Notes: generated by a model not told the origin, from the sequence alone. A stretch of 64,000 bases of DNA from Escherichia coli (GCF_048403405.1 NZ_CP183129.1); one strand, 5' to 3'; shown: positions 62,887-64,000, counted from the first letter of the stretch. Numbers and translations: made by a program.

Positions 62887-63030
62887 ATGCGGCAATTCAT
62901 AATCTCTGAAAATACCATGCAAAAAACTTCTTTTAGACCAAAGACAGTATTTTTCAGACCTTCAAATAAGGCATTAAATATCAATAAGTTACACCAGTTT
63001 TTAAGCAATAAAAAAAACCACCAGAGATAA
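62887..63030 (+). pseudogene. rluE: probable truncated rluE: first ~17 codons conserved, then divergent and stop after 47 codons
   Basis: Translation begins [17 protein letters not shown] as recalled for RluE, then diverges; no long + strand ORF follows in this frame; relies on memory of the RluE N-terminus. Confidence 0.4.
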
Positions 63031-63176
63031 CTAACAGGATGCTATTTGGTCAAAATTTGACATTACTCGACTCAGCGACTATCTCACTTTGAGCACTATT
63101 GGGAAAATTATCAAAAGTCATGGTTGAAGCGACAAGCAACGAGTAAATTATGGCATCCCCCCTTTTTGAGGTTCAC

Positions 63177-63263
63177 ATGAAACGCTTTGCACTGATAGCT
63201 GTGAAACTCGTTGCCTTTACTGGTTCTGCATCTGCTGCAACCGAAGAAATCAACTTCAAGTAA
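63177..63263 (+). CDS. possible small signal-peptide-like ORF (28 aa)
   Basis: atgaaacgctttgcactgatagctgtgaaactcgttgcctttactggttctgcatctgctgca... encodes MKRFALIAVKLVAFTGSASAATEEINFK; short, unverified. Confidence 0.2.
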   Translation: MKRFALIAVKLVAFTGSASAATEEINFK

Positions 63264-63296
63264 CAGAAACACTATATAACAATGGAGTGTTGACAA

Positions 63297-63746
63297 ATGG
63301 ATACTACCGAAGAACGCAATGGAACATATTTCTACAGAGGACACCCGAACCTGTCCAAAATAGAACTACTCAACGTCATATTCCTTGAAGAATTCTGTAA
63401 GGAATTGGGGATTGATTCGGTATCAGGTGCAGCAATCTTATCTGGTCAACCGTGGCTGGGTACAAGAGCGAAGCCGCAAGGGGCAACCCTGGGAACAAGT
63501 GTTGTCTCAAAGTATGCGCGTATACTGATGAGAGATGCACGCATGCCTTTTGGTATTTCTGTTCATACACCAGTGGGTGTAAGGATGCAGAAATCTAATA
63601 AGCTTGCTGCAATTATCGCTCGTTGGGTCCCGTGGATTGGTTGGGCTTCACTGTCGATGAGTCTTTACAGGGTTTCGACTCGTACCCAGGAAAAATACAA
63701 TCTGATTGCCAAACCTCAAGACCGTATTAAGTGGACTTCCTTCTAA
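63297..63746 (+). CDS. hypothetical protein (149 aa) with C-terminal hydrophobic segment
   Basis: ORF with segment AAIIARWVPWIGWASLSM; lies in apparently foreign DNA after the rluE breakpoint. Confidence 0.5.
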   Translation: MDTTEERNGTYFYRGHPNLSKIELLNVIFLEEFCKELGIDSVSGAAILSGQPWLGTRAKPQGATLGTSVVSKYARILMRDARMPFGISVHTPVGVRMQKSNKLAAIIARWVPWIGWASLSMSLYRVSTRTQEKYNLIAKPQDRIKWTSF

Positions 63747-64000
63747 TGGCGACAACAATCACAGACGAAGTTTTAGCACTGTTCCGTGATGAGATTCCAG
63801 GTTATCAGGATGACCACGGGAAGGAAATTCCGTTAGAACTGGACTCTGATTTGTTCGACTATCCACGAGATGATTTAGAGGACGCTATACGGAAATACAA
63901 AGAGAGGTTTGGGATTAACCTGGATAATCTGGACTGGTCTTTGTACCTTCCATGGGAGTCTGCACCATTGCTTCAACGATGGTTCAAGCTCAAGCGGGAA
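63747..64000 (+). CDS. hypothetical acidic protein, 5' part (runs off window end)
   Basis: Open frame from ATG at 63747 (MATTITDEVLALFRDEIPGYQDDHGKEIPLELDSDLFDY...) to window end; starts 1 bp after the upstream stop. Confidence 0.45.

Follow-up and report, generated by a model that had tools for sequence, protein, structure and literature searches.

The rluE locus and the inserted segment

The analysed stretch of Escherichia coli DNA (64,000 nucleotides, hereafter the window) ends in a region where icd, the left neighbour, is transcribed divergently from a frame that begins like rluE (Table 1). The first 17 of the 47 residues encoded by this frame are residues 1-17 of K-12 RluE. Positions 62716-62937 are identical to K-12 at 221 of 222 sites, and the K-12 homology ends exactly at 62937 (...CTTCTTTTAGA), the end of rluE codon 17, after which the frame continues into islet DNA and stops at 63030. 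The breakpoint was defined by megablast against 5,426 complete E. coli genomes, 5,000+ of which align over 62716-62937 and stop at 62937, and the alignment with K-12 breaks at the same position. The 47-residue ORF had no family match in a profile search. A small separate insertion of foreign DNA interrupts the K-12-type rluE frame after codon 17.

A first-pass annotation, made from the window alone, had described the divergence of this frame and its stop after 47 codons, the RluE N-terminus by which the frame was recognised, and a signal-peptide-like ORF, a 149-residue ORF and an acidic ORF behind it, all of which were found as described. It had also concluded that rluE was truncated and replaced by foreign DNA, with no RluE-like ORF following. 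This is true of the interruption after codon 17 and of positions 62938-64000, but not of the sequence beyond 64 kb, where genomes identical to the window carry intact rluE, a finding that the annotation itself had named as speaking against its reading. Its suggestion of a second insertion event agrees with the separate small insertion of 1,512 bp, whereas the edge of another island, also proposed, does not agree with a foreign segment of only this length and two genes.

Table 1. Positions of the features at the rluE locus, in window coordinates; L001 is the islet genome used for alignment, in which position 20001 corresponds to window 62716
Feature	Position	Strand	Remarks
icd (isocitrate dehydrogenase)	61465-62715	-	416-aa ORF; annotated icd in identical genomes
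Sigma-70 promoter-like site	62860-62888 (L001 20145-20173)	+	ATGAAA-17 nt-TATAAT; consensus match 10/12 only
47-aa ORF	62887-63030	+	begins with the rluE stub
rluE 5' stub	62887-62937	+	codons 1-17 of K-12-length RluE
Left 15-bp direct repeat copy	62923-62937 (L001 20208-20222)	+	AAAACTTCTTTTAGA
Left flank	62938-63296	+	359 bp, 37% GC
Motif copy A	62939-62960	+	CAAAGACAGTATTTTTCAGACC; 2 nt after the left junction
Signal-peptide-like ORF	63150-63263	+	37 aa; 28 aa from ATG at 63177 (MKRFALIAV...SASA/ATEEINFK)
Motif copy B	63263-63275	+	ACAGAAACACTAT; overlaps the stop codon of the small ORF; 22 nt upstream of the presumed toxin ATG
STM2901-family/DUF8209 (PF26636) protein	63297-63746	+	149 aa, 16.8 kDa, pI 10.0
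DUF1493 (PF07377) protein	63746 to window end 64000 (ends window-equivalent 64081)	+	first 85 of 111 codons in the window
Right flank	window-equivalent 64082-64413		332 bp
Motif copy C	window-equivalent 64186-64208 (L001 21471-21493)		about 105 nt after the DUF1493 stop
rluE, intact	window-equivalent 64414-65052; scored ORF 64414-65049 (L001 21699-22334)		212 aa; begins 414 bp past the window end
Right 15-bp direct repeat copy	window-equivalent 64435-64449, beyond the window (L001 21720-21734)		AAATCTTCTTTTAGA
42-nt patch	window-equivalent 64450-64491 (L001 21735-21776)		directly after the right repeat

The sequence past the window was read from genomes 100% identical to window positions 56000-64000 or 62716-64000; 371 complete genomes match the final 1,285 bp of the window at 100% identity, and several, e.g. 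strain 4621, do so over its final 8 kb. The gene order in all annotated examples is icd (- strand), the stub, an STM2901-family gene, a DUF1493 gene, rluE, nudJ, mnmA, hflD and purB, the last five being arranged as in K-12 in every identical or near-identical genome examined. The product of the downstream ORF is RluE according to the NCBIfam equivalog model NF008487 (469.6 bits against a cut-off of 284 bits); its catalytic domain (TIGR00093) spans residues 40-211, and it aligns with PDB 2OLW over residues 7-212. The new rluE start ATGAAATACTTTAGCGATTCT lies in islet DNA, and the right end of the islet supplies a new ATG and seven codons (MKYFSDS), thus leaving an intact, catalytically complete rluE gene. 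The swapped N-terminal region is still strongly basic. It falls outside the crystallised core, as the first 28 residues are missing from the PDB 2OML construct.

K-12 aligns with the islet genome in two blocks (K-12 1-222 with islet 1-222, and K-12 208-986 with islet 1720-2498), the second breakpoint being at L001 21720. An imperfect 15-bp direct repeat, AAA[A/T]CTTCTTTTAGA, corresponding to rluE codons 13-17, brackets the foreign segment with a spacing of 1,512 bp, and window positions 62938-64000 represent the first 1,063 bp of this islet, which has the same orientation as rluE. The GC content of the islet segments is 37-46%, compared with 50.5% for icd and rluE. The 1,512 bp contain two genes, neither of them a mobility gene; of the marks of an integrase-mobilised island or prophage, the direct repeats alone are present, with no integrase or recombinase. 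In a plasmid search the hits were limited to chromosomal pieces that had been mis-binned and to distant homologues in Salmonella and Klebsiella, with no close match on true plasmids. Viral contigs likewise contained no close match, only relatives at 36-47% identity, and the families matched in PHROG have no assigned function.

On the host side of the right repeat, a 42-nt patch differs from K-12 at 13 positions, changing the amino acid in 7 of 14 codons, with two changes synonymous, after which identity returns to about 98%. The patch disrupts V.RFS, a motif that other genera conserve, and because the RluE N-termini of these genera are all K-12-like (MQKTSFR.H.V.RFS), it is not an ordinary orthologue allele. 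The sequence upstream of the right repeat shows no detectable resemblance to the K-12 icd-rluE intergenic region. A plain insertion does not account for the 13 differences. Two mechanisms were considered: integration of a 15-bp core type, which leaves the divergent patch unexplained, and homology-facilitated illegitimate recombination from a donor, which leaves unexplained why the junctions coincide with the repeats. A donor for the new rluE 5' end was sought by a protein search with the 61-aa islet-type N-terminus, which gave only fragments; the non-islet sequences were all K-12-like, and no donor emerged.

The prophage e14 and other lambdoid prophages insert at the icd 3' end and supply a replacement gene end. 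The islet is similar in that it enters a gene end, supplies a replacement end and leaves a stub, with short direct repeats at the junctions. It differs in carrying no integrase or mobility gene, in its size (1.5 kb compared with tens of kb), in targeting the 5' end of rluE, and in the hyper-divergent 42-nt patch next to its right repeat.

Downstream of icd, the iraM segment is bracketed by a direct repeat of 43 nt (60547-60589 and 61414-61456) that represents the icd-terminator hairpin, its two copies being 86% identical. The copies look like scars of former attachment sites at the icd 3' end. In strain CFSAN061763 two IS200C copies flank iraM (L001 16518-16976 and 18096-18554); they are absent from window positions 60500-61465. 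The islet region of this strain is identical to that of the window.

The promoter-like site in front of the stub is that of K-12-type rluE and is now directed into the islet. The annotated rluE ATG (62887) and the -10 box of this site, TATAAT (62883-62888), overlap; therefore, the true start of K-12-type rluE may be Met11, with the ATG at 62917. A start at Met11 agrees with the NCBIfam RluE model, which begins near MQKTSFR. A consensus scan of the right flank gave no promoter-like site, and a scan of the + strand gave no terminator-like site before rluE. Since the promoter-like site points into the islet and no such terminator intervenes, the two islet genes and rluE are possibly co-transcribed, and rluE may be expressed from its old promoter by read-through.

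Between E. coli carriers the left flank differs by 0-7%, and it has no homology outside the islet in the E. coli genomes or in the fetched loci of other genera, and the right flank was likewise found nowhere else in these two sets. Attempts to align the left flank with K-12 rluE, or the right flank with the K-12 icd-rluE intergenic region, scored no better than shuffled sequences. For the signal-peptide-like ORF a profile search gave no family match, and in Escherichia sp. E1V33 a 5-bp indel shifts its frame; it is probably what remains of a gene and not a functional gene. Rfam had no match in the islet. A short motif occurs in three copies, A and C being identical at 18 of 22 positions and B and C at 13 of 13. 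All E. coli alleles, as well as E1V33, retain the three copies, which are missing from the loci of other genera. Copy B precedes the presumed toxin ATG by 22 nt; in other genera it is the hcp stop codon that precedes this ATG, by 10-16 nt. They split the islet into two cassette-like segments, which hints at a nested or serial cassette insertion.

The STM2901-family and DUF1493 genes

The first islet gene encodes a protein of the STM2901 family, as recognised by model NF045926 (156 bits against a cut-off of 110 bits, residues 8-142 on model positions 1-140), and PF26636 is precomputed for all homologues of this protein. In the family alignment L24, S68, S71 and R109 are invariant, and T67, P112 and G115 nearly so. 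The C-terminal segment, noted as hydrophobic in the first-pass annotation, is only moderately hydrophobic: over 19 residues the Kyte-Doolittle maximum is 1.24, short of the threshold usually applied to transmembrane segments, and a transmembrane reading of this C-terminus was rejected as unproven because of this low value. The protein falls within the size of a small effector (less than about 20 kDa), and a candidate cognate gene lies directly downstream, its start overlapping the STM2901-family stop by 1 nt.

The product of this second gene belongs to the DUF1493 family (Pfam-A E = 1.3e-29, residues 4-110 on model positions 3-107 of 108). With a pI of 4.49 it is acidic, compared with 10.0 for its 149-residue partner. 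It has neither a signal peptide nor a transmembrane segment, so the target of the presumed toxin would be cytoplasmic. Its fold resembles that of acyl carrier protein (ACP), in which a four-helix bundle carries a phosphopantetheine-attachment serine at the start of helix II. In an alignment that is weak, this serine faces a nearly invariant aspartate of DUF1493 (Asp42/43), suggesting that DUF1493 is not a carrier protein. PADLOC assigned no family to either the STM2901-family or the DUF1493 protein, and neither is thereby recognised as an anti-phage defence component. A literature search found no functional paper for DUF1493, STM2901, DUF8209 or PF07377.

The STM2901/DUF1493 pair is a conserved two-gene unit that occupies different chromosomal sites in many Enterobacteriaceae and Erwiniaceae. 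[quoted passage not shown] The position directly downstream of hcp, which would be expected of an Hcp-dependent effector gene, is thus taken by the orthologues and not by the gene at the E. coli locus. The E. coli islet has no adjacent hcp, vgrG or other T6SS gene, and no hcp remnant is detectable in its left flank. A distant hcp gene at 66% DNA identity is present in about 1,420 genomes, including at least one islet carrier. The homology of the islet to other genera is confined to the two coding sequences, at no more than 78% DNA identity.

A profile search of 1.84 billion representatives returned 366 relatives, many of them longer proteins with the domain at their extreme C-terminus. Seven of ten long relatives have the RHS repeat-associated core TIGR03696 above its cut-off of 32.5 bits, with the NF045926 domain C-terminal to it; an eighth (P0159) scored 21.3 bits, below the cut-off. 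A metagenomic Rhs/DUF6443 array (L032 3001-5365) contains an orphan Rhs C-terminal region with the DUF8209 domain and, about 360 bp downstream of it, a DUF1493 gene; the STM2901/DUF1493 pairing therefore reaches far outside Enterobacteriaceae. For the gene downstream in another distant Rhs locus (L033) no DUF1493 Pfam match is on record.

A parallel in name is STM2901-STM2902 of Salmonella Typhimurium, located next to SPI-1, in which STM2901 is of the same family as the islet protein; a Salmonella enterica record carries the STM2901-family/DUF1493 pair at 68.7% DNA identity. The Salmonella pair occupies another locus, and a literature search found no published function for it. STM2901-STM2908 have been described only as a separately regulated block (PMC7232297).

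Distribution and variation of the islet

The islet is present in 374 of 5,426 complete E. coli genomes, always at the rluE site. Carriers include ST648, CE10 and an O102:H6 strain, which we take to represent the early-branching phylogroups F and D. Escherichia sp. E1V33, which is not E. coli, shares the islet, its junctions and the stub, and is about 95% identical across the locus. Its divergence from E. coli, taken over L001 18700-25500, is strongly mosaic: it amounts to 0.4-0.8% in the icd 5' end and the intergenic region, 2-5.6% in the islet, and 7-8% in rluE and nudJ. This pattern indicates recombination across the locus.

Identity is 99% or more for the two genes in 373 of the 374 carriers, and for the right flank in 366 of them. 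Every annotated E. coli allele examined encodes one and the same DUF1493 protein, WP_000246191.1, whereas the toxin gene is frameshifted in strain 2012C-4221 and has its 3' end altered by IS2 in CUWW06. Between E. coli and E1V33 there are 5 amino acid changes among 7 nucleotide differences in one gene and 5 among 9 in the other. Forty-two other E. coli genomes (e.g. NZ_CP119726; L040 5789-6111) contain a decayed scar, hcp'-'DUF1493, from which the toxin gene has been deleted; this scar lies on a mobilisable island with integrase and relaxase genes, beside the hxsABCD His-Xaa-Ser locus. The variation fits decay of the toxin with retention of the immunity gene.

Possible function and origin of the islet

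We consider it quite probable that the islet is an orphan T6SS or polymorphic toxin-immunity pair without hcp, inserted into the 5' end of rluE, which it provided with a new head. The toxin-immunity reading draws on the repeated linkage to hcp and on the fusion to Rhs proteins. The 149-residue protein would be a small type VI secretion toxin carried by Hcp and acting in the cytoplasm of the target cell, while the DUF1493 protein, as its cytoplasmic immunity protein, would bind the basic toxin and neutralise it. In E. coli the pair has probably lost hcp and most likely has been kept as an orphan effector-immunity pair; it might either protect against neighbours firing the same toxin, or its toxin might ride on an Hcp encoded elsewhere.

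Small T6SS cargo effectors that depend on Hcp include Tse1-4 of Pseudomonas aeruginosa and the Ssp proteins of Serratia. The islet toxin resembles such effectors in being the product of a small gene (16.8 kDa) that directly follows hcp in orthologous loci and is itself followed by a small cognate gene. The scattering of STM2901/DUF1493 loci over different chromosomal sites is also reminiscent of orphan hcp-effector-immunity islets, from which the E. coli copy differs in having no hcp and in belonging to an uncharacterised toxin family. A further similarity is to the Rhs or YD-repeat polymorphic toxins, as the STM2901/DUF8209 domain follows the RHS repeat-associated core in distant relatives, with a DUF1493 gene next in the L032 array; the E. 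coli toxin domain, in contrast, stands alone, without an Rhs shell or PAAR.

It is rather unlikely that the two genes are decaying cargo without present function, the only selected effect of the islet, if any, being on rluE through a new 5' end or altered regulation. The loss of hcp would be in accordance with such decay, as would the sporadic lesions that inactivate the toxin and the fact that most of the differences between E. coli and E1V33 in both genes change an amino acid. Nevertheless, both ORFs are intact and conserved at the level given above in all carriers but one, while the adjacent left flank has diverged by up to 7%, and the DUF1493 protein does not vary across the E. coli alleles examined.

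The ACP-like fold of DUF1493 and the three motif copies can be combined into another, unlikely proposal: the pair might form an uncharacterised polymorphic-toxin family in which the immunity protein mimics ACP with serine replaced by aspartate, suggesting a toxin directed against ACP or an ACP-dependent enzyme. A cassette-type insertion using motifs A, B and C would then have wired the pair, in the E. coli lineages with the islet, into the rluE-nudJ-mnmA transcription unit and rebuilt the 5' end of the host gene.

Two small overlapping genes, one for a basic and one for an acidic protein, with no secretion genes nearby in E. coli, also have the look of a chromosomal type II toxin-antitoxin module for addiction or stress that acts intracellularly only and is unrelated to T6SS. 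This is improbable, as the toxin gene comes first, in many genera the pair is tightly and repeatedly linked to orphan hcp, DUF1493 shows no DNA-binding features, and no PADLOC model matches either protein. Furthermore, the toxin domain is also found as an Rhs C-terminal domain, a placement that is a hallmark of exported polymorphic toxins.

That the islet arrangement is ancestral in Escherichia, the K-12 form having arisen by deletion between the 15-bp repeats, seems very improbable. The direct repeats do flank the segment, and the carriers do include CE10, ST648 and O102:H6 strains, presumably of phylogroups F and D, as well as a non-coli Escherichia. However, the RluE N-termini of other genera are all K-12-like, a deletion would leave codons 18-31 of the islet type (KKQVSRLNSQHSTK) and not those of K-12 (NHQVKRFSSQRSTR), and the stub is 100% K-12-like although it would be non-functional. 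Finally, the loss of rluE by truncation after about 17 codons at the edge of a larger genomic island, compatible with the lack of an RluE-like ORF after the stub within the window, is hardly tenable given the intact gene 414 bp further on and a foreign segment of 1,512 bp in total.

The hcp-less toxin-immunity pair in the rluE 5' end, the reading favoured here, bears on both the host gene and the protein family. In carriers rluE is not a pseudogene, which corrects a likely mis-call; in about 7% of the complete E. coli genomes the gene instead encodes an alternative N-terminus, and the islet offers a clean typing marker for the lineages that carry it. The STM2901/DUF8209 and DUF1493 proteins form a two-gene family that so far has been annotated by family name only and may now be read as a toxin-immunity pair, and the ACP-like fold of the presumed immunity protein provides one hint about the target of the toxin.
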